Sequence record: MZ436830.1
Origin: Escherichia phage JK1
DNA length: 64,000 nt
Reading direction: 5' to 3' (one strand)
Shown here: positions 18,279-38,712 of the stretch, piece by piece
How the letters are laid out: each line of letters opens with the position of its first letter
How positions within the stretch are numbered: position 1 is the stretch's first letter
The notes under the pieces: model-generated
Told to the model about the DNA's origin: nothing
Seen by the model: the letters and a program-made list of their open reading frames with translations, nothing else
Databases searched by the model: none
Made by a program: the position numbers and the translations under genes

Positions 18279-18306
18279 TTTCTGTTCCTCCGTAGTTGAT
18301 AGTTGT

Positions 18307-18336
18307 ATAATACCACAGAGGAACAGTCTTGTAAAC
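18307..18336 (-). promoter_or_regulatory. Early promoter (GTTTAC-N18-TATTAT)
   Basis: Plus gtaaac 18331-18336, ataata 18307-18312; followed by conserved leader gttgatagttgtataatacc. Confidence 0.5.
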
Positions 18337-18338
18337 CA

Positions 18339-18653
18339 CTAAAAGAAACTTCTTTCACAATTTTTTCCACTGAACCAAGCGCTCACTGCTTTCTTAGTCT
18401 CAGGAGCAGTGTTATCCATAAACCATTCAAAGGCAGCCTTTTTATGATTCTGGAGGGCTTCTCGGGCTTTAATCTGTTCACGGTCTATTAACACTAACAT
18501 ATGAGCCTTTCTTGTCACCAAGGGCTTCTTATGATTTTTTGAATACTCCCAATCATTTGTCCATCGCATCGTTGTTGCGAACTGAAATACTGCTTCTTTA
18601 ATTTTAGTTTCGTAAATTTCACGAGCCTTTGAGTATAACATCACTACCTCCAT
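18339..18653 (-). CDS. Hypothetical protein
   Basis: 104 aa ORF. Confidence 0.5.
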   Translation of the reverse strand: MEVVMLYSKAREIYETKIKEAVFQFATTMRWTNDWEYSKNHKKPLVTRKAHMLVLIDREQIKAREALQNHKKAAFEWFMDNTAPETKKAVSAWFSGKNCERSFF

Positions 18654-18742
18654 TTACCAGTTTAATTCTAATCATCTTTTTGATGGCAGTCCATATAATC
18701 TATTTCTGAACTGCCTTTTTATCTTAGAAGGCCTCTTATGAA

Positions 18743-19723
18743 TTATTTCAGAAGAGTAACCTCAGCGATTTCTTCCCAACCGTTTTTGTCGGTCATAATA
18801 AAGTCAGCAAGATAAAGAGCAGTACGCAGTGAAACATTACGTAAACGATTAACATTGACTTTCATCCATGATAATGCTTTATAAGTTTCTTCATCAGAAA
18901 GACCGCGCTTTTGCATCATGTCAGTTGAAAGAATAACATCTTCAACCCTGACCATAATTTCTTCATTAGTGTGAACACCCAAATCCAAATAAACTGAGCG
19001 GGACACTAATGCTTGTAAATGTGGAGCAAGTTTAGTACCACGGTCTAATTCGCGGTCAATGTCAACGTTTGTGATAAAAACAATCGTTCCTTTAAATTCA
19101 AACTCACGCTCAATGCCTTTTTCTTCTAAGTAAGAAGATGCAGTGCTCCAGCAGACTTTACGGGTCTCTCCAGTGTCCAGAGCAGCTTTTAGAAGATTAA
19201 GAATGTCCATATCAGAGAAAACATCCACATCATCAATCAAAAGGACAGAATTCTCTTCACGATTATTCCAAAGCTGTTCATAAAGACCGATACCGGAGAT
19301 TTTACCGTTAATGCTTTTATATTCAATGTATCCAATATCATTTGCTTTATTTAAAGCTTTATCTAAAGAATACGTTTTACCAATACCTGCCGCACCAGAG
19401 ATAATTAATGAACGAATGTTTCCGTTAATAATACCATTCGTCATCATTCCCATAACATTAAATCTTTTATTAATGCGGGTTTTCATATCTTCATACGATT
19501 CTTTAACTTCTTCAACTTTTACACCATCATATGAAATGTCTGATTTGTAAACCCAAACACCGCGACGTTTACCGTCAATTTCAACAAAAACTTTACCATC
19601 TCCTTGTGCATCTACCGGAGCATTATCTGGGAACCATTCGCCTAAGAGCTCAAAAGTTCCAGAGATTTCTTTACCGAAGTAGATACCCTTATTGATAGTT
19701 ACAGTTTTCATTTTATTCTCCAA
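18743..19723 (-). CDS. P-loop ATPase (AAA-like; T4 nrdC.10-like position)
   Basis: 326 aa; Walker A GAAGIGKT, Walker B VLLIDDVD. Confidence 0.65.
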   Translation of the reverse strand: MENKMKTVTINKGIYFGKEISGTFELLGEWFPDNAPVDAQGDGKVFVEIDGKRRGVWVYKSDISYDGVKVEEVKESYEDMKTRINKRFNVMGMMTNGIINGNIRSLIISGAAGIGKTYSLDKALNKANDIGYIEYKSINGKISGIGLYEQLWNNREENSVLLIDDVDVFSDMDILNLLKAALDTGETRKVCWSTASSYLEEKGIEREFEFKGTIVFITNVDIDRELDRGTKLAPHLQALVSRSVYLDLGVHTNEEIMVRVEDVILSTDMMQKRGLSDEETYKALSWMKVNVNRLRNVSLRTALYLADFIMTDKNGWEEIAEVTLLK

Positions 19724-19745
19724 ATCCGTATCAGTTGATAGTTGT

Positions 19746-19775
19746 ATAGTACCATAAAGCTTTATGCTTGTAAAC
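19746..19775 (-). promoter_or_regulatory. Early promoter (GTTTAC-N18-TACTAT)
   Basis: Plus gtaaac 19770-19775, atagta 19746-19751; 22-nt leader identical to the one at 34983-35004. Confidence 0.5.
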
Positions 19776-19799
19776 AGTTTTGTGAAAAATTTTTGAAAT

Positions 19800-19824
19800 A
19801 AAAAAGGGAGCCCGAAGGCTCCCT
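19800..19824 (-). terminator. Intrinsic terminator-like hairpin with C(UUCG)G loop and U-run on the minus-strand RNA
   Basis: Plus agggagcc-cgaa-ggctccct at 19805-19824, preceded by aaaaa; lies just downstream of the 337-aa ORF stop. Confidence 0.5.
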
Positions 19825-19825
19825 A

Positions 19826-20839
19826 TCATTTATAATAACTTTGGTGGTTTTCAAGATAGACCTTCTCAAGGAAGTCATCCCAGAAACTCATGTCTACTGT
19901 TTTAGGCATACCATTCTTAGAAGCTTCAGTAGATGCTGCTTCTACTTGATCGACCACATCTTCCAAAAACTCTTGAACTGTTTTAAATGGATGTTTACCC
20001 AACTTCACGTCGAGAATAAATGGAGCATCTTGGAGTGGATAAATCAAGTCGCCAGTTTTGTAAATTTCCAATAGTTGAAGTCCACCACGACAAGCATGAC
20101 TTAGTGCTTTCCAATCAATACCTTCATTAGCTTCGGCTTTACGAGCACGTTCACCATATTCAGCATCTAATTTGTTCAGTGACTGCTTAAGCTCAATAAG
20201 AGAAAGCGTTGTCTGATATTTACGACCCAGCACTGTATAGAACGTTTGTGGACCTGTTTTCTCATGATTATGGAACACCCATTCACAGAATTCGTTTTCT
20301 GGAAGACGATGCTTAATATCTTCAACTTTAGTACGACGCTGCTTAATGGAACCGTCTTCTTGGTAATCAACCCATTGCTCAGGGATTTGATTAACTACTT
20401 TCAATACATCGCGTAATGCAGCCAAACGAGAACCCTTGACACCGTATTTAGAAGCTTGCTTGCGGACATATCCTAAATAGGATTTCATGTTAGTCGTATA
20501 AAAACGAGAACGGTTGTCTTGAATAAACTTCCACACATCAGGCAAATCAGATTTAACCACTAGTTTAGGTGGAGTATGAAGCATATCCAATGCTACAGTT
20601 TCACCATCTGCTGCTAATTTAAAGAAATATTTAAGACTGTATAGTTCATGGTCAATATCATCTTTAGTGTTTTTAGATGATGTATTGTTAGTATTTTTAC
20701 TCATATGCTCTTTAACATTTCCGACAAGAATATCGCGAGCAGGAGGAACAAAGATTTCTTTAAAATCTACATCAGATTCTGGGGTAGAAGTTCCATAAAG
20801 ATGACTACCAAAATAGCTTTTCATTACTGTTTTCATCAT
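19826..20839 (-). CDS. Hypothetical protein (T4 nrdC.11-like position)
   Basis: 337 aa ORF. Confidence 0.6.
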   Translation of the reverse strand: MMKTVMKSYFGSHLYGTSTPESDVDFKEIFVPPARDILVGNVKEHMSKNTNNTSSKNTKDDIDHELYSLKYFFKLAADGETVALDMLHTPPKLVVKSDLPDVWKFIQDNRSRFYTTNMKSYLGYVRKQASKYGVKGSRLAALRDVLKVVNQIPEQWVDYQEDGSIKQRRTKVEDIKHRLPENEFCEWVFHNHEKTGPQTFYTVLGRKYQTTLSLIELKQSLNKLDAEYGERARKAEANEGIDWKALSHACRGGLQLLEIYKTGDLIYPLQDAPFILDVKLGKHPFKTVQEFLEDVVDQVEAASTEASKNGMPKTVDMSFWDDFLEKVYLENHQSYYK

Positions 20840-21297
20840 TCAGCCTTATATTCAATAACAGGACATACTTTAGCTTTACGAGCTTTTAAAAATTCAACGA
20901 TAATCGATTTCTTGGGTTGAATAGGAGGTAAACCTTTATACGCCCTATCAATATTTTCTACGTGTAAAGCATAATCCTTTTTCCATTTATAATCTTTATA
21001 TTTTTCACGCAAATGTGCAGGAATAACAAATGAACCGATAATAAGTAAAACAACCAAAAGCGCAAGTATAAATGCCGATGGAAGAAGAGTCCATAAACTA
21101 CCGAAAATAAGCCAACGTTGTAGGCTTTCTGCACAAATAATTGTTAGCCCTACGAGTATAGCACACCCAAAAATAGAAACGAAAAATGTAGGAATGGCAA
21201 TAGACCAAAAATATGCGCATAGTGTCTTAGGTCGTTGCCATTCATCGTTAAACAATTTGAATAATTTATAGTGCCAAGAGTTTTCATTAATAATCAT
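20836..21297 (-). CDS. Membrane protein (multiple TM segments)
   Basis: 153 aa; hydrophobic stretches AIPTFFVSIFGCAILVGLTIICA and LLALLVVLLIIGSFVI. Confidence 0.55.
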   Translation of the reverse strand: MIINENSWHYKLFKLFNDEWQRPKTLCAYFWSIAIPTFFVSIFGCAILVGLTIICAESLQRWLIFGSLWTLLPSAFILALLVVLLIIGSFVIPAHLREKYKDYKWKKDYALHVENIDRAYKGLPPIQPKKSIIVEFLKARKAKVCPVIEYKAE

Positions 21298-21299
21298 AA

Positions 21300-21821
21300 T
21301 TATCCTTTCATTGAAGGCGTAACGGTTGTTAAATACTTAATCATAGCTTCAGCTTCTGATTTTGATAATGAAATTTCTCCATTGTTTTGACGAATAGAAA
21401 TAAAATCCGGATGACGGTCACCACCAGCTTTTAAAACACACATATAAGTATCAGTTTCACCTTCAATATTTGAAATGATTGAAGCAGTTCCACATGAATG
21501 TGGTTTTTGATAAATCAATGCAGCTTTTCTTCCGCCATTTGACTGCTCATAGGCTTTTAATACATCAAGCAAATCAGTTCTTTTATCAATAGCTAAAATG
21601 TTATTTTCATCTTCAATGTTAAATCCTTCGGATACTTCATAAAGCGTTACCCATAAATCACCAATGTCAATAACAGCATTTACTTTTCCACGGCTTTCAA
21701 GAGTATGACAAATTTTCTTGATTTCGTCATAACTCATTTTAATAATATCATCTCCTTGAATAAGGAAGATGTCATTTTTAAATTCAACACGAATTAAACC
21801 ACTTTCACTTGAAATAAACAT
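21300..21821 (-). CDS. Hypothetical protein, paralog of the following ORF
   Basis: 173 aa; C-terminus EAEAMIKYLTTVTPSMKG resembles that of 21828..22382. Confidence 0.5.
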   Translation of the reverse strand: MFISSESGLIRVEFKNDIFLIQGDDIIKMSYDEIKKICHTLESRGKVNAVIDIGDLWVTLYEVSEGFNIEDENNILAIDKRTDLLDVLKAYEQSNGGRKAALIYQKPHSCGTASIISNIEGETDTYMCVLKAGGDRHPDFISIRQNNGEISLSKSEAEAMIKYLTTVTPSMKG

Positions 21822-21827
21822 ATTTCC

Positions 21828-22382
21828 TCACTTTGAAATCATAGTTGGAATAACAGAATCAAGATAAGTCTTTAGTGCAATAGCTTCGTCTTTGGTAAAT
21901 GTGACAATATGTGCTCGAGAATCATCAATTTGGCGAACAAGTACGACATCGCCATCTTCATAAGAAGTCTTGACATCCAAAGTCGTAGTATAATTTGCAG
22001 CTACTGGATTAATAATGCTAGCACCACGATCTTTAGCCCATTGAAGTTTAGCCTTTTCGGGTGTTTCGACTGTTTCAGATTCCAAGAATTCTTTCACCTT
22101 GGCAACGAATGTTGCCCAATTGTTGATAGAAAGACACATAAATTCAGTTTCAATATTACCGCCGTAAAGGCCACGATAAAAACGAACTTGGAGGTCGCCT
22201 GTAATATTAGTTACACCGGTAACTCCTGAGGGAGCATAAGATAAAATCGCAGCCAGTTCCATAGGAAGAATAGTAATACTATCGTCTTCCTGCGTCAGAA
22301 CGTATACATTATCACGTTTTTCGATAACCAGGTCACCGAACAAATCAGTTGTTTCAATTACAGCTTTCATATTATTTACCAA
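21828..22382 (-). CDS. Hypothetical protein, paralog of the preceding ORF
   Basis: 184 aa; C-terminus EAIALKTYLDSVIPTMISK. Confidence 0.5.
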   Translation of the reverse strand: MVNNMKAVIETTDLFGDLVIEKRDNVYVLTQEDDSITILPMELAAILSYAPSGVTGVTNITGDLQVRFYRGLYGGNIETEFMCLSINNWATFVAKVKEFLESETVETPEKAKLQWAKDRGASIINPVAANYTTTLDVKTSYEDGDVVLVRQIDDSRAHIVTFTKDEAIALKTYLDSVIPTMISK

Positions 22383-22557
22383 TTAAAGTTTCAATATAAG
22401 AATCAAGATTTACTTTAGCTTCTTCCATAAGAGTTTTGTATTTAATCTTGTTAGCATGTCCGGAGAAAGCTGATTCATCAATAATTGTTGATGTATGAAC
22501 AGCTTTACTATACGTCTCAATTAATTCTCTTAATTTAAAAGCCTGCTCACTTGTCAT
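22372..22557 (-). CDS. Small helical protein, member of the xEQxxKLxELI paralog family
   Basis: 61 aa; MTSEQAFKLRELIETY N-terminus. Confidence 0.45.
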   Translation of the reverse strand: MTSEQAFKLRELIETYSKAVHTSTIIDESAFSGHANKIKYKTLMEEAKVNLDSYIETLIGK

Positions 22558-22689
22558 TACATACTCCTTTGAATCATATCAATAATATTGTTCACCAGAT
22601 TATAGGTAAACAAAGGATAATTATATTGAATCATCACATACACAACAAACAAAACTTTCATTCTCTTCTCCTTGGCAGTTGACAAGATT

Positions 22690-22719
22690 ACTATACCATA
22701 ACCTTGCCAACTTGTAAAC
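22690..22719 (-). promoter_or_regulatory. Early promoter-like motif (GTTTAC-N18-TATAGT)
   Basis: Plus gtaaac 22714-22719, actata 22690-22695. Confidence 0.35.
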
Positions 22720-22721
22720 CA

Positions 22722-22895
22722 TTAAATGACGTTTTCGATAAAATTCTGAAGCTTTGTATGAGCATCAACCATGATTTTCATTTCTTCCTTTGCGAAAGCT
22801 GTACCTCTTTCACGAGAAGAACATTCATAGTCAGAAACTGCATTAGCATATTCTTCAATTAGCTTCATTAAAAACATCTGCTTTTCAGTTTTCAT
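22722..22895 (-). CDS. Small helical protein, not in the ORF track; possible member of the same paralog family
   Basis: 57 aa read manually: MKTEKQMFLMKLIEEYANAV..; start overlaps the upstream ORF end (alternative ATG at 22877). Confidence 0.3.
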   Translation of the reverse strand: MKTEKQMFLMKLIEEYANAVSDYECSSRERGTAFAKEEMKIMVDAHTKLQNFIENVI

Positions 22896-23079
22896 TATTC
22901 CACCTAATCATTTCAAGATATTGAACTAACTTAGCTTTGGATTTATCCAAATCCTTTTTAGCTGCTTCTATACCGTCGTATGAATATCCTTCACAATGCT
23001 CAACTGCCAATTGATATGAATCTATTTCAATATCACGTGCTAATTTAATGATTTTTTCAAACTGTTCGCGTGTTAGCAT
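22885..23079 (-). CDS. Small helical protein, member of the xEQxxKLxELI paralog family
   Basis: 64 aa; MLTREQFEKIIKLARD N-terminus. Confidence 0.45.
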   Translation of the reverse strand: MLTREQFEKIIKLARDIEIDSYQLAVEHCEGYSYDGIEAAKKDLDKSKAKLVQYLEMIRWNNEN

Positions 23080-23081
23080 AA

Positions 23082-23321
23082 TTAAACTCTCGTATTATGA
23101 TCGATAATTTCATCAAGAAACATATCTAACGCTTCTAAAGCATTATCAACTTTAGTTTCAAAGTCTTTAATGCCTTTATTCGAAATACCCGATGAATACC
23201 AAGCAAAGTCAATCAGCTCTTCATCTGCTTTACGAATTGAAGCCACTAATTCCTTGATTTTATCTGCTTGCTCTATACTAATCATTATTCCACCACATAT
23301 GACAGAGAGAATATTGCACAC
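23082..23321 (-). CDS. Small helical protein, member of the same paralog family
   Basis: 79 aa ORF; internal start gives [17 protein letters not shown]. Confidence 0.45.
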
Positions 23322-23473
23322 GCCATGTGAGTTGCAACTTCATCACACATATTATAACGTTTCTTAAGAAATTCTACAAGTTCTTCACTAGTAACTTCAT
23401 CCATGTCGACGAAAAAATCACCATTAATGATGACGTAGATATTTCCTTCTTGATTGAGTGCTTCAATTTTCAT
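23285..23473 (-). CDS. Small acidic protein; start set at MKIEALNQ with GAGGAG ribosome-binding site
   Basis: The ORF-track start at 23518 lies upstream of the -10 element of the adjacent promoter, so the internal ATG at 23473 is preferred. Confidence 0.4.
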
Positions 23474-23501
23474 GATGTTCTCCTCTTTATCCGATAGTTG
23501 T

Positions 23502-23531
23502 ATAGTATCACAGCTCAAACGGAAAGTAAAC
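23502..23531 (-). promoter_or_regulatory. Early promoter (GTTTAC-N18-TACTAT) immediately downstream of a stem-loop
   Basis: Plus gtaaac 23526-23531, atagta 23502-23507. Confidence 0.5.
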
Positions 23532-23541
23532 CGGTAAAATG

Positions 23542-23564
23542 AAAAAAGTCTCCCGAAGGAGACT
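23542..23564 (-). terminator. Intrinsic terminator-like hairpin, C(UUCG)G loop plus U-run
   Basis: Plus agtctcc-cgaa-ggagact at 23547-23564, preceded by aaaaa. Confidence 0.5.
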
Positions 23565-23568
23565 AATG

Positions 23569-23955
23569 TTATTCGAGGGAAAGAAGATACTTACTCTGGT
23601 AAAACATCCCAGTAATATCATCTATCGTGCTTTGGATGGCTGGAGGCATTTCTTTATAAATGCTGTTAGATTGGTCTAGTATGCGATCAATCATTTTAAT
23701 TGTGTCGGTAGGAAGTTTACTGGCATCTGGAATTGAAGGTGTGTATTTTCTACCAGAATACCCCAAATATTGCTCACCAAATTTATCAATCAAATCTGGC
23801 AACTCGGAGAAAATAAAATCGTATGCTTTGTGTCTAGCATAACTTTTAGTTTCAAAATGTGCAGAATGAAAATAAGCTTGTGCAGCCATTAATAAACCTA
23901 AGTATTCATCTGCCTTTGAAGGTTTTCCACTTTGTGAAAAGTCGCTGAATTTCAT
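23569..23955 (-). CDS. Hypothetical protein (rI.-1-like position)
   Basis: 128 aa ORF immediately upstream of rI. Confidence 0.5.
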
Positions 23956-24245
23956 TCAGTCTCCAATTTAATGTTCATAATTCTAGCGTATGATTGTGCC
24001 ATCTCCGCGCCTCGTTCTATACATTCAAAATCAGAAGAGCACGGGTCATTTTTATAGGTCGTTCTCATAAAACTATAGAATTGTTCAGACGATTCTACGC
24101 TTTTATTTTCAAAAAGTGTATAAACGTGCCTAATACCAGATTCCATAAATTTATCAAAATGAGGATCGACATTCGCTTCAATCGATGGAGATAAAACAAA
24201 TGACAATCCTAGCATGGCAAATAGTGCCGTTGCTTTTAAGGCCAT
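23952..24245 (-). CDS. rI: Lysis-inhibition regulator RI (signal-anchored)
   Basis: 97 aa; MALKATALFAMLGLSFVLSPSIEANVDPHF matches T4 RI as I recall it. Confidence 0.8.
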   Translation of the reverse strand: MALKATALFAMLGLSFVLSPSIEANVDPHFDKFMESGIRHVYTLFENKSVESSEQFYSFMRTTYKNDPCSSDFECIERGAEMAQSYARIMNIKLETE

Positions 24246-24257
24246 AAAGGCCTCCTA

Positions 24258-24470
24258 TCATTTTTGTCCTGTATTTACTTTATGCCGATGCACGGCCTTA
24301 ACTTTATCAAGGTATTTTTCAAAATTTCGCAATCTAGTATAGTCTGCCGGAGATTGGTTGAGTGATACTTCTCGACGCAAAGCTGAAATAACATTTCCAA
24401 CTTCCCTACGAATTTCATCTAATTGAAGCACAGTAAGATTGCGAAGTTGCTTTTCAGTTAATTGTAGCAT
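24258..24470 (-). CDS. Hypothetical small protein (rI.1-like position)
   Basis: 70 aa ORF. Confidence 0.45.
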
Positions 24471-24512
24471 ATATACCCCTTTAGTTAGATAAACCTATTT
24501 ATAACTTTTGCA

Positions 24513-25094: not shown

Positions 25095-25103
25095 ATCACC
25101 TTC

Positions 25104-25683: not shown

Positions 25684-25871
25684 TATTCTTCTACATGTTG
25701 TTTACGACCTTTCTTATCAATAAAGGTATATTCAACGAATGTTCCAATGTAGTCTTTATCTACATCATGTGGACTATTAATTGGACATTTAGTACGGCAA
25801 ATGCGTTCCCATTGACGAATAATTACTGCTTTGTTTTTAGGATCAAACGGATGTGGGTAATGCACTTTCAT
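25659..25871 (-). CDS. Hypothetical small protein
   Basis: 70 aa ORF. Confidence 0.4.
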   Translation of the reverse strand: MKVHYPHPFDPKNKAVIIRQWERICRTKCPINSPHDVDKDYIGTFVEYTFIDKKGRKQHVEEYCLKVTWL

Positions 25872-26322
25872 AATCCACCACTATTAAATCAATATCAGGA
25901 GTAAACATGTCGATTAATTTAGAAACCTTATCCCAATCGCCGCCAGCAATACCACAACCTATGCGTGGAATGTAAATTACCGGTTTAAACAAAAGGGTTT
26001 CTGCCTGTAGATTTAATTCTATCATGCAGTTTACTAAAGCACCATAATCAAGATTAGGACCTGGTTCGTATTGCGTATACAGGTTATAGCATATACCAAA
26101 TCCCGTAGGACTATGTTTAAAAACAATAGACATATCGCCTAATTTATCACGAGAACCGTACTCAGTAGTGGTTTTATCTATTTCTAAAATTTTGGGATAG
26201 GCTCTGGCTAATTGACCCGCTACACCTGAACCCATAGTATGAAAACAATTGCACCCGTGCGCAATAATATTACCTTGAAGAAATAGGGCGACAATATCGC
26301 CCTTGATATATTTTACAATCAT
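25843..26322 (-). CDS. Possible macro-domain (ADP-ribose binding/processing) protein
   Basis: 159 aa; Gly-rich motif HGCNCFHTMGSGVAGQLARAY resembles the macro-domain N..N...GGGV.GAI..AAG signature; by eye only. Confidence 0.4.
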   Translation of the reverse strand: MIVKYIKGDIVALFLQGNIIAHGCNCFHTMGSGVAGQLARAYPKILEIDKTTTEYGSRDKLGDMSIVFKHSPTGFGICYNLYTQYEPGPNLDYGALVNCMIELNLQAETLLFKPVIYIPRIGCGIAGGDWDKVSKLIDMFTPDIDLIVVDYESALPTSV

Positions 26323-27694: not shown

Positions 27695-27724
27695 ATTATA
27701 CCACAGTCAAGAGGAAAAGTAAAC
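27695..27724 (-). promoter_or_regulatory. Early promoter upstream of regB (GTTTAC-N18-TATAAT)
   Basis: Plus gtaaac 27719-27724, attata 27695-27700. Confidence 0.5.
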
Positions 27725-29864: not shown

Positions 29865-30338
29865 TTATTTGAACGATTTAACGTACTGAATAGAACCTTT
29901 ACTATTCACAAAGGCAATTTTACCATTTTTATTATACATGGTAGCAGTACGTTGATAACCATAAGTTTGTTTACCAGATTGATAACCAACTAATGCGAAA
30001 TTATCTTCGCCCATTTTATTCTGTTTAGCGCGAATGCGTTCATGACCATGTGCCATAAGAACCTTAGCATCACCGGTTGCAATGGATCGACGAGTTTTTT
30101 CATCTTCAACTGTATTAACAAAGTCGTCAAATGAATCAAATTTAGCATGAGATTTATTATACAGTTTTCCATCTACTGCATAATTATATCCCTGTACATC
30201 CATCTCAACTTCTGTACCATCATCCAATACAGCAGTGATTTTTTGACCTTTTTTAAATTTCAAAAGATCAGTAAAAGATTCAGCAATAATTTGAGAATTA
30301 ATAGCTGCTTCAGTGATAAATTCTTGATATGTTTTCAT
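29865..30338 (-). CDS. Internal-protein-like ORF with capsid-targeting-sequence (CTS)-like N-terminus
   Basis: 157 aa; N-terminus MKTYQEFITEA matches the T4 internal-protein CTS (MKTYQEFIAE) with an I-x-E protease-type site; immediately downstream of denV. Confidence 0.6.
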   Translation of the reverse strand: MKTYQEFITEAAINSQIIAESFTDLLKFKKGQKITAVLDDGTEVEMDVQGYNYAVDGKLYNKSHAKFDSFDDFVNTVEDEKTRRSIATGDAKVLMAHGHERIRAKQNKMGEDNFALVGYQSGKQTYGYQRTATMYNKNGKIAFVNSKGSIQYVKSFK

Positions 30339-30347
30339 ATGTTTCCT

Positions 30348-30764
30348 TTAAATGTAAATATTTTTACCGTAATACTTATACCAATGTGGTTTCATTAAAA
30401 TTTTTTCATCAAGTCGTTGTTGACTCAATTTAATAGCTGATTTGCATGGATTATAATCATTTTTCCATTCTATTGGAATATCGCTGATGTCAGGAACTTC
30501 AGTATCTTTTATACTGAACCCGCGTTTTAAGCATTCCGTTATAATGTCTAATTGACGCTTTCGCAAAAATTCTAACTTATCGTAAAAGAACGTAACATGA
30601 CCAGAACCTAAAATAAACTCGGAAGATATTTTAAAATCTTTAACGCGCTTACCGTTTGCCACATGCTTACGAACTATACCAAAAACACGTGGCAATTCAC
30701 GATATTCTGCAATTAAATGCTGATCAGTAAGTTCAGATACTAAAGTCAAATTAATACGAGTCAT
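30348..30764 (-). CDS. denV: Endonuclease V (pyrimidine dimer DNA glycosylase)
   Basis: 138 aa; [37 protein letters not shown] matches T4 DenV as I recall it. Confidence 0.9.
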
Positions 30765-30789: not shown

Positions 30790-30819
30790 ATACTATCACA
30801 ATTCTAGGAGAAAGTAAAC
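30790..30819 (-). promoter_or_regulatory. Early promoter-like motif upstream of denV (GTTTAC-N18-TAGTAT)
   Basis: Plus gtaaac 30814-30819; weaker -10; occupies the 60-bp denV-e intergenic gap. Confidence 0.4.
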
Positions 30820-30823
30820 AACT

Positions 30824-31792
<969 letters not shown>

Positions 31793-31811
<19 letters not shown>

Positions 31812-32640: not shown

Positions 32641-33035
32641 CGTGATTCCTTAACAAATTTCATAATTTCATCAAATTCATGCGCAGCAAGTTTAAGCTGA
32701 TGTTCCTTTTTAATCTTTTTACACTGAGCTTTCCAATCACGTACACGTTTACGATAGTGTCTTCCTTGATACCAGTATCCTATCCAATTTATAGGTACTA
32801 ATAAAAGCGGAACTACCAATGGAAGAATTAGTGTTGCTCCAAATATTGCACCAGATTCAATATCAGTCATAACGTCTATAACTATTCCAGCAATCAGCAG
32901 AATCACAAATGATACGGCTACCACAGGACCTATTAATACATCAGTAGGAATTAGCTGACGTTTTAGTTCATACTTCACAGGTTCACTTGGAAGGTATAGT
33001 GATGGCTTTGACATATTCTCTACATTCCTTAACAA
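32622..33035 (-). CDS. Membrane protein (2 TM), tandem triplet member
   Basis: 137 aa; ends FVKESRCKSQN. Confidence 0.5.
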   Translation of the reverse strand: MLRNVENMSKPSLYLPSEPVKYELKRQLIPTDVLIGPVVAVSFVILLIAGIVIDVMTDIESGAIFGATLILPLVVPLLLVPINWIGYWYQGRHYRKRVRDWKAQCKKIKKEHQLKLAAHEFDEIMKFVKESRCKSQN

Positions 33036-33588
33036 ATTTTTCTAATAATAAATCGCTTTCAAAATTAGGATTTTCTACGAATTTATCAAAAAGATCATCA
33101 ACAATAGTTAAGATATTCTTTTTACTAAGAATACGTTTATTTTCATGCTTCGTTTCAGAATCAACTATAAGAGTAAAGAAATATTTCTTGCCCTGAAATT
33201 TTACAGTAGTATCAATATAGAATAAATTTGACTTTTGTAAATTACGTTTAAACCATGCATCACTTAAACTATAAACGCCAAGATAATCATAATCGTCGTT
33301 TAAATAACAGACCGTCCATTCAGGAGAAACAAAATCAGTAAATTCAACGTCAAAATCGCATGTTAATAAATGAATTGATTCAATACTGTTAATAAGTATT
33401 CCAGGACGTATTAAAGACTTTTTACCTTTATAAAATCCAGAAAGACTTTCATCAGTTTCATATGAAGAACCCCAATAATAATTACGTCCTTCTGCCATAC
33501 GTTTAAGAGCATTTAATAATTGGTCTGGAACATCAACCTGTCTTTGGAACTCTTCAAACATTGAATTGAAATCACTTTGCATTTTCAT
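32983..33588 (-). CDS. Hypothetical protein
   Basis: 201 aa ORF. Confidence 0.55.
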   Translation of the reverse strand: MKMQSDFNSMFEEFQRQVDVPDQLLNALKRMAEGRNYYWGSSYETDESLSGFYKGKKSLIRPGILINSIESIHLLTCDFDVEFTDFVSPEWTVCYLNDDYDYLGVYSLSDAWFKRNLQKSNLFYIDTTVKFQGKKYFFTLIVDSETKHENKRILSKKNILTIVDDLFDKFVENPNFESDLLLEKFVKECREYVKAITIPSK

Positions 33589-33608
33589 TCCTACTTACTT
33601 CAAGTAAT

Positions 33609-33624
33609 AGGGGCCGAAGCCCCT
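33609..33624 (-). other. Intergenic C(UUCG)G-loop hairpin (RNA-stabilising or weak terminator)
   Basis: Plus ggggc-cgaa-gcccc; no clear U-run. Confidence 0.35.
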
Positions 33625-33629
33625 TATCA

Positions 33630-34223
33630 TTATTTCAGAGAATTAATGTATTCCTGAACATCGGCAGAGGTAGTTTCAACCCCAGAAATATTGCCATTAA
33701 AGGTTTCAACTCGAGCAAGAGTATCTTCAATATCAACCTTAGTCAGTGCTGCAATTTCAACTACATCATCAGCAGTACTAATTCCGAGGGCATTCGCGGC
33801 GCGAGTTTCACGGATATATTCCAATTTAACTGCAAGTTCTTGGCGAGCATCATCTAACTCAACTACTTTCTTGGCGATTTCAATTCGCATTTCAGCATAA
33901 CCATCAGCTTTAGTAGTCAACTGCTCAGCTGTTCGACGATATAGTAAACCAAGTTTAGCATGCATTGTTACATCTTGACCTTCAGAAAGAAGCTTGCGAA
34001 TTTCACGCTCTTTTGATTCGGCCTGTCGATTCTTTTCGACAATAAGTTCACGAATACGTTTTTCTTCATTAATAGATTTAACAGAAGCAGTTTTTAGATC
34101 TTTAATCTTATCAAGTAGTTTTGCTGCCGCAGCAGTATACTGTTCTTCAACAGATAAATTTTTAGCCATAGCAGAACCAAGTTTAGTGCGAATAAACTCA
34201 ACAATTTTCTTCAGCATGTTCAT
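33630..34223 (-). CDS. Coiled-coil protein, possibly PspA/IM30-like
   Basis: 197 aa, strongly helical and charged; family assignment by eye only. Confidence 0.45.
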
Positions 34224-34298
34224 AGCATTTCCTTTAGTTAATTAAGGGTTTTTATAATCCGTGGGAGTATTATACTCTACTCCCAAGAGTTTGTAAAC

Positions 34299-34631
34299 TT
34301 ATTCTTCGTCCAATTCATCAATAAATTTATCGATACTACTATTAATAGACTCATCGATGATTAACAAAGCATCATCATCCATAATATTAATATTTTCTAA
34401 AGCATCAATATAAGCTTGATTGACTATAGACCATGCCCTTTGAAAATATGGGGCTTCATCATCAGGACTGAACCAACGTACACCTTCAAAGATACGTTTG
34501 GCATAATCTAACACCCATTGTACAGGCATGTTTTGAGAACGTTCGTTAAACTCTTTAAAGTCCTTAGATTCAAAAAGCTCTTCAGGATAATAATTTCTAT
34601 TACAAAAAGCTTTACTAAAGTTACGTTTCAT
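34299..34631 (-). CDS. Hypothetical acidic protein
   Basis: 110 aa ORF. Confidence 0.5.
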   Translation of the reverse strand: MKRNFSKAFCNRNYYPEELFESKDFKEFNERSQNMPVQWVLDYAKRIFEGVRWFSPDDEAPYFQRAWSIVNQAYIDALENINIMDDDALLIIDESINSSIDKFIDELDEE

Positions 34632-34687
34632 AATGTTCTCCTCAAAGTTATAGGCTCATAATATCTCAATCATGAGCCTGTGTAAAC

Positions 34688-34963
34688 TTATTTCATATTA
34701 TTGAAATATTCTTCTGCGATTTCATCGTTATCATGGTAAACTTTAGAAGACAGTTTAACATAACCTTCTGCTGTGAACATATTAATCACAACCTTTACAG
34801 TATACCACTGACCATCTTCATTACCCATTACTGCGTAAGTTTCAAACATCGGATGGTCAGGACCGATAACTTTAATATCATTCACTGTACGACCAAAATC
34901 TTCTGAAACACATTTCATAAAGAAGTTGAACAGTTCGCCGTAATTATCCATTTCATTCTCCAA
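34688..34963 (-). CDS. Hypothetical protein
   Basis: 91 aa; early promoter directly upstream. Confidence 0.5.
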   Translation of the reverse strand: MENEMDNYGELFNFFMKCVSEDFGRTVNDIKVIGPDHPMFETYAVMGNEDGQWYTVKVVINMFTAEGYVKLSSKVYHDNDEIAEEYFNNMK

Positions 34964-34994
34964 GTTGTTTTCTGTATCAGTAGTTGATAGTTGT

Positions 34995-35024
34995 ATAGTA
35001 CCATGGAAGGGTAAGGATGTAAAC
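34995..35024 (-). promoter_or_regulatory. Early promoter (GTTTAC-N18-TACTAT)
   Basis: Plus gtaaac 35019-35024, atagta 34995-35000; leader identical to 19734-19755. Confidence 0.5.
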
Positions 35025-35154
35025 TGTTTTGTGAAAAAAATTTTTAAAAAGTTTTGGGGAATTCTAGGGCAGGGAGGGGCAATTAAAAGATAGGATAATA
35101 TATTATAAAGGATAGAAACTAAATGATGTCTAGAGAGGCCCGGAAAGGCCTAGA

Positions 35155-35189
35155 TACCAAAAAGCCCCAACCTTTTGGTCGGGGCTAAG
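35155..35189 (-). repeat. 35-nt direct repeat, copy 1 (terminator hairpin plus U-run), downstream flank of the CTS-like ORF
   Basis: taccaaaaagccccaaccttttggtcggggctaag; 32/35 identical to 35690-35724. Confidence 0.7.
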
Positions 35190-35193
35190 AATG

Positions 35194-35655
35194 TTATTTG
35201 ATTTGTTTAGCAGACCAAATGCGATCTTTAATAATTTTTTGGATGTCTTCAACATACTCTAGGTCATGAGCATGTGGATTATCTTTGAAACTATGAGCTC
35301 GCGCAAGTTTCTGGCCTTCGGTCTTAATTATCAAAAGTTCTTTAAGAATTGCTTCATACCTAGAGATAATTCCTTTAGCAATATTTTTTTCTTGTGCTGC
35401 TTTAGGGTCAGCCTTAGGAGCAGGTTTACCAGAAGGTTTTTCGAAAGCCGCACCAGTAGCAACCAGGCTTTTCCAGGCGGTGGTAACATAGTTACCCACA
35501 AAGCCTTCAGCTCTCATATCGTCATAGAACTTGTACCGAGATTCGTCAGAAGCATCTTTATAAGAATATTTACCAGCTTTAATAGCAGCAGTTGCTACAG
35601 CGCGAACATCTGAAGCGGATGCTTCGGTCATTAAAAATTGAGCATAAGTTTTCAT
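35194..35655 (-). CDS. Candidate packaged internal protein: CTS-like N-terminus, own late promoter
   Basis: 153 aa; N-terminus MKTYAQFLMTEA (CTS-like, L-x-E site); AGGAAA ribosome-binding site; TATAAATA 28 nt upstream; flanked by direct repeats. Confidence 0.55.
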   Translation of the reverse strand: MKTYAQFLMTEASASDVRAVATAAIKAGKYSYKDASDESRYKFYDDMRAEGFVGNYVTTAWKSLVATGAAFEKPSGKPAPKADPKAAQEKNIAKGIISRYEAILKELLIIKTEGQKLARAHSFKDNPHAHDLEYVEDIQKIIKDRIWSAKQIK

Positions 35656-35683
35656 TATTATTTCCTGTGTTAATTAACTCATC

Positions 35684-35691
35684 TATTTATA
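35684..35691 (-). promoter_or_regulatory. Late promoter TATAAATA upstream of ORF 35194..35655
   Basis: Plus tatttata at 35684-35691. Confidence 0.5.
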
Positions 35692-35724
35692 CCAAAAAGC
35701 CCCAACCTTTCGGCTGGGGCTAAG
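35690..35724 (-). repeat. 35-nt direct repeat, copy 2 (terminator hairpin plus U-run), upstream flank of the CTS-like ORF
   Basis: taccaaaaagccccaacctttcggctggggctaag; hairpin 35698-35721 followed on the minus RNA by UUUUU. Confidence 0.7.
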
Positions 35725-35762
35725 CCTTGCGGCAACCTTGTCGGGGTTCCACCTGCTAAGGC

Positions 35763-36030
35763 AAGTGTTTGTACGAAACGCCGGGATTCGAACCCGGTTA
35801 TTAAGTAGTTGACGCTACTCAATATTTTTAAAAGGCCATATCTCGACCATATCCGAACGTTCCGTCAAAAACGCTACTCGGCTTATGGCAAAGATATTTC
35901 CTCGAATCGATAATTCGGTGCGCCGTTTCTGCTGTGATGTAAGAGGGCATCAATAAACGTAAAGATTATTAACGCAATTCCTTACTCAGGGAACATCAGT
36001 CCGACGACTTGCCGGTAGCGACCCGGCTTC
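35763..36030 (-). ncRNA. Possible stable small RNA(s) with tRNA-like 3' T-arm (T4 species-1/2 RNA-like), downstream of tRNA-Arg
   Basis: About 270 nt with no ORF between tRNA-Arg and the terminator; 3' end CCGGGTTCGAATCCCGG plus acceptor-like strand; cloverleaf not resolved. Confidence 0.3.
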
Positions 36031-36035
36031 TTGTC

Positions 36036-36111
36036 TGGTCGAGGCAGTAGGGATCGAACCTACGACCCAGGACTTAGAAGGTCCTTGCTCTTCCTTCTGA
36101 GCTATGCCTCG
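36036..36111 (-). tRNA. tRNA-Arg (anticodon UCU)
   Basis: Hand-folded: 76 nt, CCA encoded, anticodon loop CUUCUAA, T-arm GGTTCGATCC. Confidence 0.8.
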
Positions 36112-36115
36112 TATT

Positions 36116-36190
36116 TGGCGGACGTGATAGGATTCGAACCTATAACCAATCGCTTAACAGGCGATCGCTCTGCCATTGAGCTACACATCC
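36116..36190 (-). tRNA. tRNA-Asn (anticodon GUU)
   Basis: Hand-folded: 75 nt, CCA encoded, anticodon loop CUGUUAA, T-loop TTCGAAT. Confidence 0.7.
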
Positions 36191-36194
36191 AAAT

Positions 36195-36281
36195 TGGTGG
36201 GGAGTGGTGGAGTCGAACCACCCGAGTCGCAATGACAATGGATTTACAGTCCACACCGCTACCTCTACGGGATAACTCCCC
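36195..36281 (-). tRNA. tRNA-Tyr (anticodon GUA), long variable arm
   Basis: Hand-folded: 87 nt, anticodon stem-loop GTGGA-CUGUAAA-TCCAT, type II variable arm, CCA encoded. Confidence 0.7.
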
Positions 36282-36290
36282 AAATTAATT

Positions 36291-36365
36291 TGGTGGCCCT
36301 GGGTGGAATTGAACCACCATCTGGCGATTATGAGTCGCTTGCTTGAACCTTCCAGCTACAGGGCC
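36291..36365 (-). tRNA. tRNA with CAU anticodon (Ile via modified C34, or Met)
   Basis: Hand-folded: 75 nt, acceptor GGCCCTG/CAGGGCC, anticodon loop CUCAUAA. Confidence 0.7.
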
Positions 36366-36366
36366 T

Positions 36367-36442
36367 TGGTGCTGATTGACGGAATCGAACCGCCGACCTT
36401 CTCATTACAAGTGAGTTGCTCTACCTACTGAGCTAAATCAGC
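36367..36442 (-). tRNA. tRNA-Thr (anticodon UGU)
   Basis: Hand-folded: 76 nt, D-arm GCTCAGTAGGTAGAGC, anticodon loop CUUGUAA. Confidence 0.8.
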
Positions 36443-36447
36443 AAAAC

Positions 36448-36537
36448 TGGCGGAGGCGATAGGATTTGAACCTATGAGTCGCCGGAGCGACTGCCGGTTT
36501 TCAAGACCGGTGCATTAAACCACTCTGCCACGCCTCC
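36448..36537 (-). tRNA. tRNA-Ser (anticodon UGA), long variable arm
   Basis: Hand-folded: 90 nt, anticodon stem-loop CCGGT-CUUGAAA-ACCGG. Confidence 0.8.
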
Positions 36538-36539
36538 AG

Positions 36540-36613
36540 TCTCCATACAAGGATTTGAACCTTGGACCTCCTGATCCCAAATCAGGCGCTCTACCAAACT
36601 GAGCTACACGGAG
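36540..36613 (-). tRNA. tRNA-Pro (anticodon UGG)
   Basis: Hand-folded: anticodon loop UUUGGGA; CCA not encoded. Confidence 0.75.
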
Positions 36614-36623
36614 TAAATTAAAT

Positions 36624-36697
<74 letters not shown>

Positions 36698-36702
36698 AAA
36701 TT

Positions 36703-36789
36703 TGGTGCGAGAAGTGGGACTCGAACCCACAAGGAAATCATTCCGCAGCATTTTAAGTGCTGTGCCTTTACCAATTTGACCATTCTCGC
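36703..36789 (-). tRNA. tRNA-Leu (anticodon UAA), long variable arm
   Basis: Hand-folded: 87 nt, anticodon stem-loop CAGCA-CUUAAAA-TGCTG; one nucleotide separates it from tRNA-Gln (dimeric precursor). Confidence 0.8.
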
Positions 36790-36790
36790 G

Positions 36791-36863
36791 CTGGGAATAA
36801 AGGACTCGAACCTTTGCATCCTGGAATCAAAATCCAGTGCCTTACCAACTTGGCTAATTCCCA
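36791..36863 (-). tRNA. tRNA-Gln (anticodon UUG)
   Basis: Hand-folded: acceptor TGGGAAT/ATTCCCA, anticodon loop UUUUGAU. Confidence 0.8.
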
Positions 36864-36949
36864 ATTATTAACAAAGGCTCTCAAACAAGAACCCTTGATG
36901 ATAGAGGGTATTAATCAGTGCGGTATGAGTTAATAATAACAAATAATTC

Positions 36950-37465
36950 TTAAAGCAAATTAAACATTTTAACGGTCGGCAAAACAATTTCTTTTTCTAT
37001 ATAAGAGTATTTAACACTCTCAACTACACGCAAAAAATCATAATCATAATACTCAGAAGCACTGCCTAAAATATTAATAAGTCCTTCAAGCACTTTATTA
37101 CCATTCACAAAGAATAAGTCAAATACGCGTTCTTCGTCTTCTTCGGATTTATTACCAAGGTCAACTTCTATATCAAAGACCTTTTTAATGAATTCTGGAT
37201 AAAGTTGTTCTGAGAACAGTCCTTCAACCAAGTATTCATAAATAAAAAGCGATTGCTCGCTGAACAAGCCATTACCACAATAACGTTCAGCTTTAGTACT
37301 AGAATGTCTACTTTTAAACTTCTTTAAAAGATATTGAAATTGTAAGATTTCATGCTCTTCTACGCCAAACAGTGTTTTAGTTTTATAGTTGTCACCATCA
37401 TTTTCCCAGGTAGTGACATCAATTACGTAACCCTGCGGAATTGTAGTACCTAAACAAATATTCAT
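36950..37465 (-). CDS. Hypothetical acidic protein
   Basis: 171 aa ORF between the tRNA cluster and the internal-protein-like gene. Confidence 0.5.
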   Translation of the reverse strand: MNICLGTTIPQGYVIDVTTWENDGDNYKTKTLFGVEEHEILQFQYLLKKFKSRHSSTKAERYCGNGLFSEQSLFIYEYLVEGLFSEQLYPEFIKKVFDIEVDLGNKSEEDEERVFDLFFVNGNKVLEGLINILGSASEYYDYDFLRVVESVKYSYIEKEIVLPTVKMFNLL

Positions 37466-37755
37466 TTGCTCACCATATTAATGTAAGTATATTCAATACA
37501 TTCAAGACCCAAAGGATTCTTGAAAATATCATATTCAAGAGGACCTTTTTCCGTTTCAATAAAGAAATCAAAATTTACTGTATTAAATTTACGGTCTTCC
37601 TTCACTAATTTAACCTGAGAAGATGAACGGTCAATGTAAACCTTTTCAACTTCAAAACATGTTAAAATGCCATAATCATCAATCAAGGCTTTAGCTGCTT
37701 CTTGATCATATTTATATCCATTTTCAATGGATGATACTTTAGCATAAAGAATCAT
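37462..37755 (-). CDS. Hypothetical protein
   Basis: 97 aa; 4-nt overlap coupling. Confidence 0.5.
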   Translation of the reverse strand: MILYAKVSSIENGYKYDQEAAKALIDDYGILTCFEVEKVYIDRSSSQVKLVKEDRKFNTVNFDFFIETEKGPLEYDIFKNPLGLECIEYTYINMVSK

Positions 37756-37757
37756 TA

Positions 37758-38168
37758 TCAGCCTCTATCAACGATAGCATGAGTATGGGCATTTACGATT
37801 TGCCACCAGTCGAAACGATTGGAACCATAATCTGGTTTATTTTCATTTTCTTTAATGATATCACGCAGTTTATCTTCTGTTTCAGCATACGCAATTAAAT
37901 CATCATATCCGCCACAAGGATAATAATTATCACCTGCGAATAAAAGAAAATTTACCTTAGATGGATTTACGTAATAATGGTCTTTAGGATATTTAGTTCC
38001 TCTCCAATCAGTTACTTCAACATAACGGTAAGAAAATCCATTTTTACTTTCAATCCAACTCCACGCTTCAAAAGGAGTATTAAAAACTTTATCAGGTATT
38101 AAATTACCTTCAAAATGAGAAGGATTTGCATAATCCCCGGCATAAACATAATATTCGTTAATACTCAT
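37758..38168 (-). CDS. Hypothetical protein
   Basis: 136 aa, Tyr/Trp-rich. Confidence 0.5.
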   Translation of the reverse strand: MSINEYYVYAGDYANPSHFEGNLIPDKVFNTPFEAWSWIESKNGFSYRYVEVTDWRGTKYPKDHYYVNPSKVNFLLFAGDNYYPCGGYDDLIAYAETEDKLRDIIKENENKPDYGSNRFDWWQIVNAHTHAIVDRG

Positions 38169-38354
38169 CTATTCACCTTTAGAAATTTTATCCATAACGA
38201 TAGCGATTAAACCAATTAAAAATGCTACTACAAGTGAAAACACATTTTCTGCTGTAGTCAATAATCCACATATAAATCCAACAAACATTGAAAAACTAAA
38301 AGCGGAAGCAGAAATTGCAATAGCAACATTTCGAATTAATTCACAACGTTTCAT
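38169..38354 (-). CDS. Small membrane protein
   Basis: 61 aa; ISASAFSFSMFVGFICGLL and LVVAFLIGLIAIV hydrophobic segments. Confidence 0.45.
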   Translation of the reverse strand: MKRCELIRNVAIAISASAFSFSMFVGFICGLLTTAENVFSLVVAFLIGLIAIVMDKISKGE

Positions 38355-38382
38355 TTTATTCTCCTCGGTAGTTGATAGGGTA

Positions 38383-38412
38383 ATAGTATCACTACCCTAT
38401 CTAAAAGTAAAC
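38383..38412 (-). promoter_or_regulatory. Early promoter (GTTTAC-N18-TACTAT), copy of the module at 38683-38712
   Basis: Plus gtaaac 38407-38412, atagta 38383-38388; 24-nt ttgatagggtaatagtatcactac identical to 38672-38695. Confidence 0.5.
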
Positions 38413-38646
38413 TTATTTTTTACGAAAAATTGATTTATATTTATCAGCCCATTTCTCAATGACTTTTGCCGGGCCATAGATAACAAAGTAATCGCCAAAC
38501 TCTTCACCACCGAGTTGACCGAAATCATCTAATGCATCACGAAGAACTCCATGAGGCATTTCACCCATTTTATCTTTCTTGCCAGTGTAAATAAACTCAA
38601 CTTTTACATCAGCAGTTTCAGCAATAAATTCTTGATACGTTTTCAT
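38413..38646 (-). CDS. Internal protein with canonical CTS (IPI-like by position, just upstream of 57B)
   Basis: 77 aa from MKTYQEFIAE (exact T4 CTS decapeptide); GGAGAA ribosome-binding site; ORF track extends 6 codons upstream. Confidence 0.65.
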   Translation of the reverse strand: MKTYQEFIAETADVKVEFIYTGKKDKMGEMPHGVLRDALDDFGQLGGEEFGDYFVIYGPAKVIEKWADKYKSIFRKK

Positions 38647-38682
38647 TTTGTTCTCCAATTTCACATTTGTTTTGATAGGGTA

Positions 38683-38712
38683 ATAGTATCACTACTAAAA
38701 CCCCATGTAAAC
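38683..38712 (-). promoter_or_regulatory. Early promoter (GTTTAC-N18-TACTAT) for the internal-protein-like gene
   Basis: Plus gtaaac 38707-38712, atagta 38683-38688. Confidence 0.5.

Follow-up and report, generated by a model that had tools for sequence, protein, structure and literature searches.

The DNA analysed here is a stretch of 64,000 nucleotides from Escherichia phage JK1 (sequence record MZ436830.1), called the window below, and its subject is a family of short repeats dispersed between the small accessory genes of this phage, which we read as early promoters carried in exchangeable regulatory cassettes. BLAST comparison of the 17-41 kb part returned hundreds of Tequatrovirus (T4-like) coliphage genomes at 95-98% nucleotide identity, the closest being vB_Eco_QOTSP (97.5%), and a tblastn search with T4 proteins recovered the T4 gene order: nrdC...nrdC.11, mobD.x, rI, tk, vs, regB, denV, e, nudE and e.2-e.8, followed by the tRNA cluster, trna.2-4, 57B, 57A, and genes 1, 3, 2 and 4. 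Judged by its sequence, with 96-97% nucleotide identity to many of these genomes, the window belongs to a Tequatrovirus. All of these genes up to ~42.1 kb lie on the minus strand; the plus-strand late genes (53, 5 ...) start there, and the GC skew changes sign at the same place. The promoter repeats are therefore to be read on the minus strand.

A family of promoter-like repeats in the early-gene region

An earlier sequence-only reading had pointed to six sites, each forming GTTTAC-N18-TA(C/T)TAT within a near-identical repeat of 22-30 nt. All six carry this pattern with no mismatch, on the minus strand (P18.3, P19.7, P23.5, P35.0, P38.4 and P38.7 in the list below). The close likeness between the repeats held for three of the six: the 22-mer gttgatagttgtatagtaccat has exact copies at 19734 and 34983 and a copy with 2 mismatches at 18295 (not at 18294, as first given, a 1-nt offset), and the remaining ones, at ~23490, ~38371 and ~38671, match it more loosely, with about 4-7 mismatches in the best register. 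The 22-mer is the reverse complement of what is transcribed; the minus strand reads ATGG-TACTAT-ACAACT-ATCAAC, which matches T4-type early promoters part by part: TGn extended −10, −10 hexamer, discriminator and start-site region. The site at 18294 is accordingly the −10/start region of P18.3.

The family is larger than first described, with at least 14 modules between 7.6 and 40.2 kb. Eight of them (starting at 7629, 15332, 22582, 27695, 30790, 34269, 34658 and 40173) were missing from the earlier account, as were stem-loops that overlap the −10 element in four modules. The modules and the gene that lies between two of them, with predicted promoter assignments, are as follows.

7629..7658, minus strand: P7.6, early promoter with the same tttttcacaaagtt UP-like tract; beyond the range of the earlier reading
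15332..15361, minus strand: P15.3, early promoter upstream of nrdC.4; beyond the range of the earlier reading
18307..18336, minus strand: P18.3, early promoter, GTTTAC-N18-TATTAT with a TGG extended −10; drives the nrdC.8 homologue; motif orthologous in T4
19746..19775, minus strand: P19.7, early promoter with an A/T-rich UP-like tract; drives the nrdC.10 homologue
22582..22611, minus strand: P22.6, promoter inside the tiny mobD.2 open reading frame (ORF); a weaker member, no TGn
23502..23531, minus strand: P23.5, early promoter; drives the mobD.5 homologue
27695..27724, minus strand: P27.7, early promoter of regB; in T4 the same 30-mer stands upstream of regB
30790..30819, minus strand: P30.8, early promoter; drives denV here
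34269-34298, minus strand: P34.3, promoter, 34262..34298 together with its stem-loop; lower boundary of the swappable e.7 cassette
34658-34687, minus strand: P34.7, promoter, 34652..34687 together with its stem-loop; upper boundary of the e.7 cassette
34995..35024, minus strand: P35.0, early promoter with a long A/T UP-like tract; drives e.8; carries an exact copy of the 22-mer
38383-38412, minus strand: P38.4, promoter, 38374..38412 together with its stem-loop; drives trna.4
38413..38646, minus strand: internal-protein (IP) gene, Ip6-like, 77 aa, starting MKTYQEFIAE; promoter modules on both sides
38683-38712, minus strand: P38.7, promoter, 38675..38712 together with its stem-loop; drives the internal-protein gene
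40173..40202, minus strand: P40.2, promoter-like module, GTTTAA-N18-TATAAT, upstream of gene 1; no variation seen here

The 22-mer has 3 matches against 0.00 expected, and 16 exact matches to GTTTAC-N18-TANNAT were found in the 64-kb window, every one on the minus strand, against 0.32 expected; these counts lie so far above expectation that chance is excluded. Copies are concentrated between genes, as the sequence-only reading had assumed: within 16.7-41.3 kb, 10 of the 11 exact copies fall in non-coding sequence, which makes up 11.7% of that region (p = 5e-9), and the only coding copy lies inside the 34-codon mobD.2 ORF. These exact copies are all on the transcribed strand, with 24-45 nt from the end of the −10 to the ATG. 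The early-gene part (1-42 kb) holds 15 of the 16 matches and the 22-kb late-gene part a single one, which is probably fortuitous. In this AT-rich DNA a scan with a generic sigma-70 pattern (TTGACA/TATAAT) gave 85 matches where 79 were expected, that is, no enrichment. Since the GTTTAC form is enriched and the generic pattern is not, the signal is that of the T4-specific promoter form. Three of the exact matches (7184-7213, 11719-11748 and 55996-56025, minus strand) have neither a TGn nor a nearby Shine-Dalgarno (SD) sequence and ATG; they probably lie in coding sequence and are fortuitous or weak.

Module anatomy and promoter class

Alignment of the 14 modules gave a common anatomy. Most have an A/T-rich UP-like tract 5' of the −35, often aaaaatttttcacaaa. 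The −35 element is the T4-type GTTTAC, with a spacer of 17 nt when counted from TTTACN; the 18-nt interval after GTTTAC finishes in tGTGg, giving an extended −10 TGn in 11 of 14 modules, and leads into a −10 element TAnnAT, seen as TAyTAT or TATAAT. The start-site region cTATCAA is conserved across the alignment, and by its position transcripts would begin at the A of ATCAA. A leader of 25-45 nt follows, ending in a GGAG SD, and the genes after it are homologous to prereplicative genes of T4.

T4 early promoters are "uber" promoters of the UP/−35/TGn/−10 kind with extra consensus regions (Hinton review, PMC2988021), and the consensus given for the promoters of the phage pair T4/PST is TTTACW-N17-TAYWAT (Comeau et al. 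2014, PMC4122927). Every copy here fits the latter. In T4 itself the motif is present at the orthologous positions upstream of nrdC.4, nrdC.8, nrdC.10, mobD.5, regB, ipIII, e.6, e.8, trna.4 and ipI. The label of early promoter given to the repeats in the sequence-only reading is therefore borne out by both the T4/PST consensus and the identity of the P27.7 30-mer with the T4 regB promoter region.

Dependence on MotA and AsiA, which would make the repeats middle promoters, appears highly improbable. Middle promoters carry a MotA box centred at −30 in place of the −35 (PMC2988021); all modules here have GTTTAC at −35 and a 17-nt spacer, with no TGCTT MotA box at −30, and the literature places the orthologous regB promoter among the typical early ones (PMC3014915). 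We therefore rejected the middle-promoter assignment.

The GGAG SDs at the ends of the leaders resemble targets of the phage RegB RNase, for which the strong-site consensus is GG*AGRAYARAA (PMC3014915). The sequence GGAGRAYARAA is found exactly at three module SDs, those of P19.7 (GGAGAATAAAA), P38.4 and P38.7 (GGAGAACAAAA), and nowhere else in the 64 kb; the remaining modules differ from it at 1-3 positions. These leaders may thus be cleaved by RegB at their SDs.

Terminators and stem-loops

Several promoters had been noted to sit just downstream of hairpins with a UUCG loop, and both hairpins named there are present, each with a promoter just downstream of it in the direction of transcription. 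Intrinsic terminators, taken as a G+C-rich stem-loop with a U-run, were found at four places on the minus strand; they are listed here together with the stem-loops that cover a −10 element.

19805..19824, minus strand: intrinsic terminator after nrdC.11, GGGAGCC-UUCG-GGCUCCC then a U6 run; dG −17.2
23547..23564, minus strand: intrinsic terminator after rI.-1, GUCUCC-UUCG-GGAGAC then a U6 run; dG −8.7
35163..35186, minus strand: terminator hairpin, AGCCCCGACC-AAAA-GGUUGGGGCU then UUUU; one of the two direct-repeat copies on either side of ORF 35194-35655
35698..35721, minus strand: terminator hairpin, second copy, AGCCCCAGCC-GAAA-GGUUGGGGCU then UUUU
34262-34285, minus strand: P34.3 stem-loop, GGGAGUA..UACUCCC over the −10; dG −11.9
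within 34652..34687, minus strand: P34.7 stem-loop, AGGCUCAU..AUGAGCCU over the −10; dG −14.9
within 38374..38412, minus strand: P38.4 stem-loop, 12-bp stem GAUAGGGUAGUG..UAUUACCCUAUC over the −10; dG −14.9
within 38675..38712, minus strand: P38.7 stem-loop over the −10; dG −14.2

The two UUCG terminators come immediately after the nrdC.11 and rI.-1 stop codons. In minus-strand sequence the first reads AGGGAGCC-TTCG-GGCTCCCT then TTTTT (19824-19805) and lies 21-29 nt upstream of the −35 of P19.7; the second reads AGTCTCC-TTCG-GGAGACT then TTTTT (23564-23547) and lies 15 nt upstream of the −35 of P23.5. A third hairpin with a UUCG tetraloop (33609-33624, minus strand, GGGGC-UUCG-GCCCC) lies between e.6 and e.5 with no early-promoter motif adjoining it, and is an annotated terminator in phage e11/2.

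In P34.3, P34.7, P38.4 and P38.7 a stem of 7-12 bp (dG −12 to −15 kcal/mol) covers the −10 hexamer. None of these four stems is followed by a U-run, so they do not class as intrinsic terminators. Stem-loops are weak in P22.6 and P30.8, and folding gave no convincing one in P18.3, P27.7, P35.0 or P40.2. An Rfam scan of 17-41 kb returned 10 tRNAs only, with no family matching the leaders or hairpins.

Across 14 genomes the stem over the −10 occurs in at least three sequence versions (GATAGGGTA/TACCCTATC; GATGAGGTA/TACCTCATC; GGGAGTA/TACTCCC), with compensatory changes on both sides at 6 of 9 pairs, in sequences that had been pre-selected for pairing in that register; it is therefore the compensatory pattern alone that carries weight, not the percentage paired. 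As RNA, such a stem can form only in read-through transcripts from upstream and not in RNA started at the module; apart from that, it can form only in single-stranded or cruciform DNA. It is conceivable, though in our judgement quite unlikely, that the stems of these four modules and their counterparts in relatives are a selected structural element in their own right. From their sequence and placement, the stems could serve to attenuate read-through or to stabilise 3' ends; alternatively, they could be structure-specific hotspots of recombination, through which the IP and e.7 cassettes become exchangeable. Such a role, if true, would go beyond what is demonstrated for the known cassettes of promoter and stem-loop (below).

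Breakpoints among relatives

The sequence-only reading proposed that the repeats are associated with variable gene content. We compared the window with 13 relatives (T4, T6, RB18, RB51, e11/2, QOTSP, NIC06P2, LF73P3, GRNsp7, PYPS2T, KMB22, BYEP01 and S1P5QW), using the homologous 22-30 kb of each; BLASTN alignments were chained to the window and interruptions of at least 40 bp recorded. One chaining artefact (QOTSP, 37760|38614) was excluded from the statistics. The 112 breakpoint endpoints collapse to 75 clusters, and 16 of these fall in module zones, defined as the promoter with 40 nt below its −10 and 20 nt above its −35. Such zones make up 4.4% of the stretch, so that the enrichment is ~5-fold (p = 1e-7) and the proposed association is upheld.

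Under a stricter null restricted to gene boundaries, 16 of 60 clusters lie in modules, which make up 16% of boundary sequence; this corresponds to a ~1.6-fold enrichment (p = 0.03, or p = 0.015 when the tRNA array is excluded). Promoter-bearing junctions were polymorphic in 10 of 13 rows, against 18 of 42 for the others (p = 0.03), where the 13 rows represent 12 modules with P22.6 counted twice. The association between modules and variability is real but moderate.

These numbers bear directly on a simpler explanation, namely that the modules are strong early promoters and terminators only, and do not promote recombination. Their likeness would then come from selection for RNA-polymerase binding, and indels would end in them because intergenic DNA tolerates breaks and whole-gene indels need gene boundaries. 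This explanation is favoured by the modest excess within gene-boundary zones and by the facts that most events involve no module, that three modules were never polymorphic, and that several insertions are explained by homing endonucleases. We regard it as unlikely, though a real possibility, given the position of the individual junctions.

Junctions within modules and cassette exchange

At the module joints that could be read in relatives, the junctions lie within shared sequence and not just near it. T6 lacks 3,080 bp (vs.3 to denV) relative to the window. At its junction, P30.8 supplies the upstream half of a promoter and P27.7 the downstream half; the two meet within TGTTTACTTT, a sequence that both parental promoters share. 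Module joints show negative subject gaps (14-115 nt), that is, shared sequence. Among the 14 genomes, the upstream half aagcataaagctttatgg is paired with three different leaders, and the leader taccctatcaactac with three different upstream halves, which in sequence terms is the expected footprint of crossovers in the −10/start region.

Whole cassettes vary in the same way. P19.7 is an insertion hotspot, with different ORFs in QOTSP/KMB22, NIC06P2, LF73P3 and GRNsp7, and each insert has the resident terminator and promoter at one end and another promoter-like module at the opposite end. In relatives, at least five different sequences take the place of e.7, the gene between P34.3 and P34.7, and P22.6 sits 5' of a 61-aa ORF whose presence varies. 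Between 57B and trna.4 the window has one Ip6-like gene, where T4 has ipI and T6 has Ip5 plus Ip6; a second IP gene stands beside the Ip6-like gene in T6, e11/2, PYPS2T and QOTSP, and each IP gene of this interval has its own "aataatttcacaaagttGTTTAC...TACTATtacc" module in front of it.

A stem-loop may serve as a joint as well. ORF 35194-35655 lies between the two near-identical terminator hairpins (AGCCCC..GGGGCU then UUUU) and is absent from T4, T6 and BYEP01, whose joint lies within the repeat and shows an overlap of 35-36 nt; the RB51 annotation describes the ORF as "flanked by 34 bp imperfect direct repeat". By its sequence, the stem-loop part of a module can thus also act as a recombination joint.

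Crossovers within modules at sequenced junctions support the modular shuffling of small ORFs that the sequence-only reading had envisaged. They also argue against modules that are promoters and terminators only, as do the halves and leaders found in different combinations, the inserted cassettes bounded by promoter copies, and the recombinant mini-circles with crossovers between the −10 and the SD/ATG reported by Arbiol et al. in 2010 (PMC2839356).

A further alternative would have the repeats as the ends or targets of a small mobile element (a miniature inverted-repeat transposable element, or a homing-endonuclease site) that spread through the accessory region. The repeats are dispersed, alike and placed beside variable ORFs, and some have inverted repeats, all of which would fit. 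Around the cassettes, on the other hand, there are no terminal inverted repeats or target-site duplications; the repeats have a single orientation, that of transcription, and a fixed distance to the ATG, and the conserved positions are exactly the RNA-polymerase contact elements. In relatives, moreover, the seg/HNH insertions occur at other junctions (18727|18762, 36538|36619 and 40836|40846). On the grounds of orientation, missing repeats and duplications, and conservation of polymerase contacts we rejected this idea, which we find scarcely credible.

We therefore consider it very probable that the repeats are sigma-70-dependent early promoters of a T4-like phage, on the minus strand, contained in cassettes of the PeSL type (promoter-early stem-loop: a strong sigma-70-like early promoter plus a stem-loop) that are exchanged by recombination. 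Host RNA polymerase would fire the modules immediately after infection; with each promoter firing at once, a short block of accessory genes would therefore behave as an autonomous expression cassette, insulated from read-through, in the case of P19.7 and P23.5, by the upstream UUCG terminators. As the modules share 10-60 nt and sit at gene boundaries, homologous or microhomology-mediated recombination between them would delete, insert or swap whole cassettes with expression kept. The data fit both a version in which modules promote recombination and one in which recombinants that end in modules are those that survive.

Several points weigh against this reading. The link to variability is modest under the gene-boundary null (1.6-fold, p ~0.02-0.03), the module zones were drawn wider than plain junctions, and the 13 relatives are not independent of one another in phylogeny. 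For about 60% of the distinct structural differences neither end has a module, and three of the 12 modules in 16.7-41.3 kb (P18.3, P23.5 and P40.2) show no adjacent polymorphism in this sample. The GenBank and RefSeq records of T4 annotate no promoter features, promoter activity and timing in this phage are predicted from its sequence and the T4 literature, and the pre-selection in the covariation test counts here too. The module-free differences comprise the seg-like/HNH insertions named above, the mobD swap, tk.1/tk.2, the tk.4 patches, the Ip4 replacement, e.2, ORF171 and changes in the tRNA array. With this share of module-free differences and three modules never polymorphic, modules are one of several routes to plasticity.

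Other features of the region

Two further observations concern P19.7 and P35.0. They are the most similar module pair in the window (44/65 positions identical), and BYEP01 has exact deletions of 51 bp and 64 bp that remove just these two modules (window 19724-19776 and 34985-35050).

ORF 35194-35655 encodes 153 aa, starts MKTYAQFLMTEA and resembles an internal-protein N-terminus. An Ip4-like gene (MKTYQEFITEA...) lies 9 nt downstream of denV (window 29865-30338 and 30348-30764), and the ipII and ipIII genes of T4 are absent from the window. RB18, e11/2, KMB22 and S1P5QW show a precise absence of denV; five other relatives have the Ip4 gene deleted or replaced, and no promoter module is present at the end next to denV. 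We also considered a hidden promoter between Ip4 and denV, and rejected it: only 9 nt separate the genes and they hold no motif, so Ip4 swaps are not promoter-bounded at that end.

At 18727|18762, in the nrdC.9|nrdC.10 junction (18654-18760), RB51, T6, NIC06P2 and KMB22 carry a 731-bp seg-like homing-endonuclease gene. The window lacks this insert, and also lacks mobD (HNH), which T4 has at 20840|21803. In the tk.4/macro-domain gene (25843-26322), whose protein is just 58% identical to T4 Tk.4, nine relatives show two low-similarity patches of nearly equal length (25874-26011 and 26091-26173), which suggests mosaic allelic replacement within the gene, not an indel.

Ten tRNA genes form one unbroken array at 36036-36863 (Arg, Asn, Tyr, Met/Ile2-CAU, Thr, Ser, Pro, Gly, Leu and Gln). 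The T4 annotation has eight, and relatives vary in their His/Asn/Tyr/Pro tRNA content; a segB-like endonuclease is inserted in the array of relatives at 36538|36619 and is absent here.

Relation to known systems

The modules described here match T4 early promoters and known PeSL cassettes (Arbiol 2010; Comeau 2014), and the picture is one already described. Such cassettes account for the expression, insulation and exchange of small accessory genes in T4-like phages, among them genes for internal proteins that are injected and counter host defences; this is relevant to the evolution of phage host range and to phage engineering; all of this is established for T4-type phages. What the window adds is another illustration with clean junctions, namely the T6 deletion from one promoter to another and the inserts found at the promoter of nrdC.10. 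In the literature on genome-wide mapping of T4 5' ends we found nothing usable for comparison.

Compared with T4 early promoters there is no essential difference. The modules share with them the GTTTAC −35, the 17-nt spacer, the TGn, the TAnnAT −10, the A/T UP-like tract and the start-site consensus, as well as a position upstream of early genes on the transcribed strand; at nrdC.8, nrdC.10, mobD.5, regB, e.8 and trna.4 the T4 sites have the same position and a nearly or exactly equal sequence. In contrast to T4, the gene after the P30.8 module is denV here, where T4 has ipIII and both RB18 and e11/2 have an Ip4-like gene, and the T4 scan gave no exact-motif counterpart of P34.3 or P34.7.

PeSLs were described as regulatory cassettes whose stem-loop may lie upstream in an AT-rich tract, between the promoter boxes, or overlapping the −35 or −10; they are concentrated in hyperplastic regions and mediate modular shuffling, with crossovers mapped between the −10 and the SD/ATG and recombinant excised mini-circles detected, the latter in RB49/phi1 only, by inverse PCR (Arbiol et al. 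2010, PMC2839356). Comeau et al. (2014) extended this picture to the T4/PST pair, tied it to the polymorphic IP locus, and named PeSLs as one of several plasticity routes (PMC4122927). The modules in the window are composites of the same kind, of AT-rich tract, early promoter, SD and ATG and, in part of them, a stem-loop placed upstream in the AT-rich tract or over the −10; they likewise occupy the accessory ("hyperplastic") region, beside indels and replacements between close relatives and with crossovers within the cassette. In contrast to the described PeSLs, a convincing stem-loop is present in no more than 6-8 of the 14 modules. The 57B-trna.4 interval, finally, resembles the polymorphic IP locus of T-even phages (Repoila et al. 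1994, as described in Comeau 2014, PMC4122927): alternative MKTYQEF... IP genes fill it, each after a conserved promoter module, with one, two or different IP genes depending on the phage.

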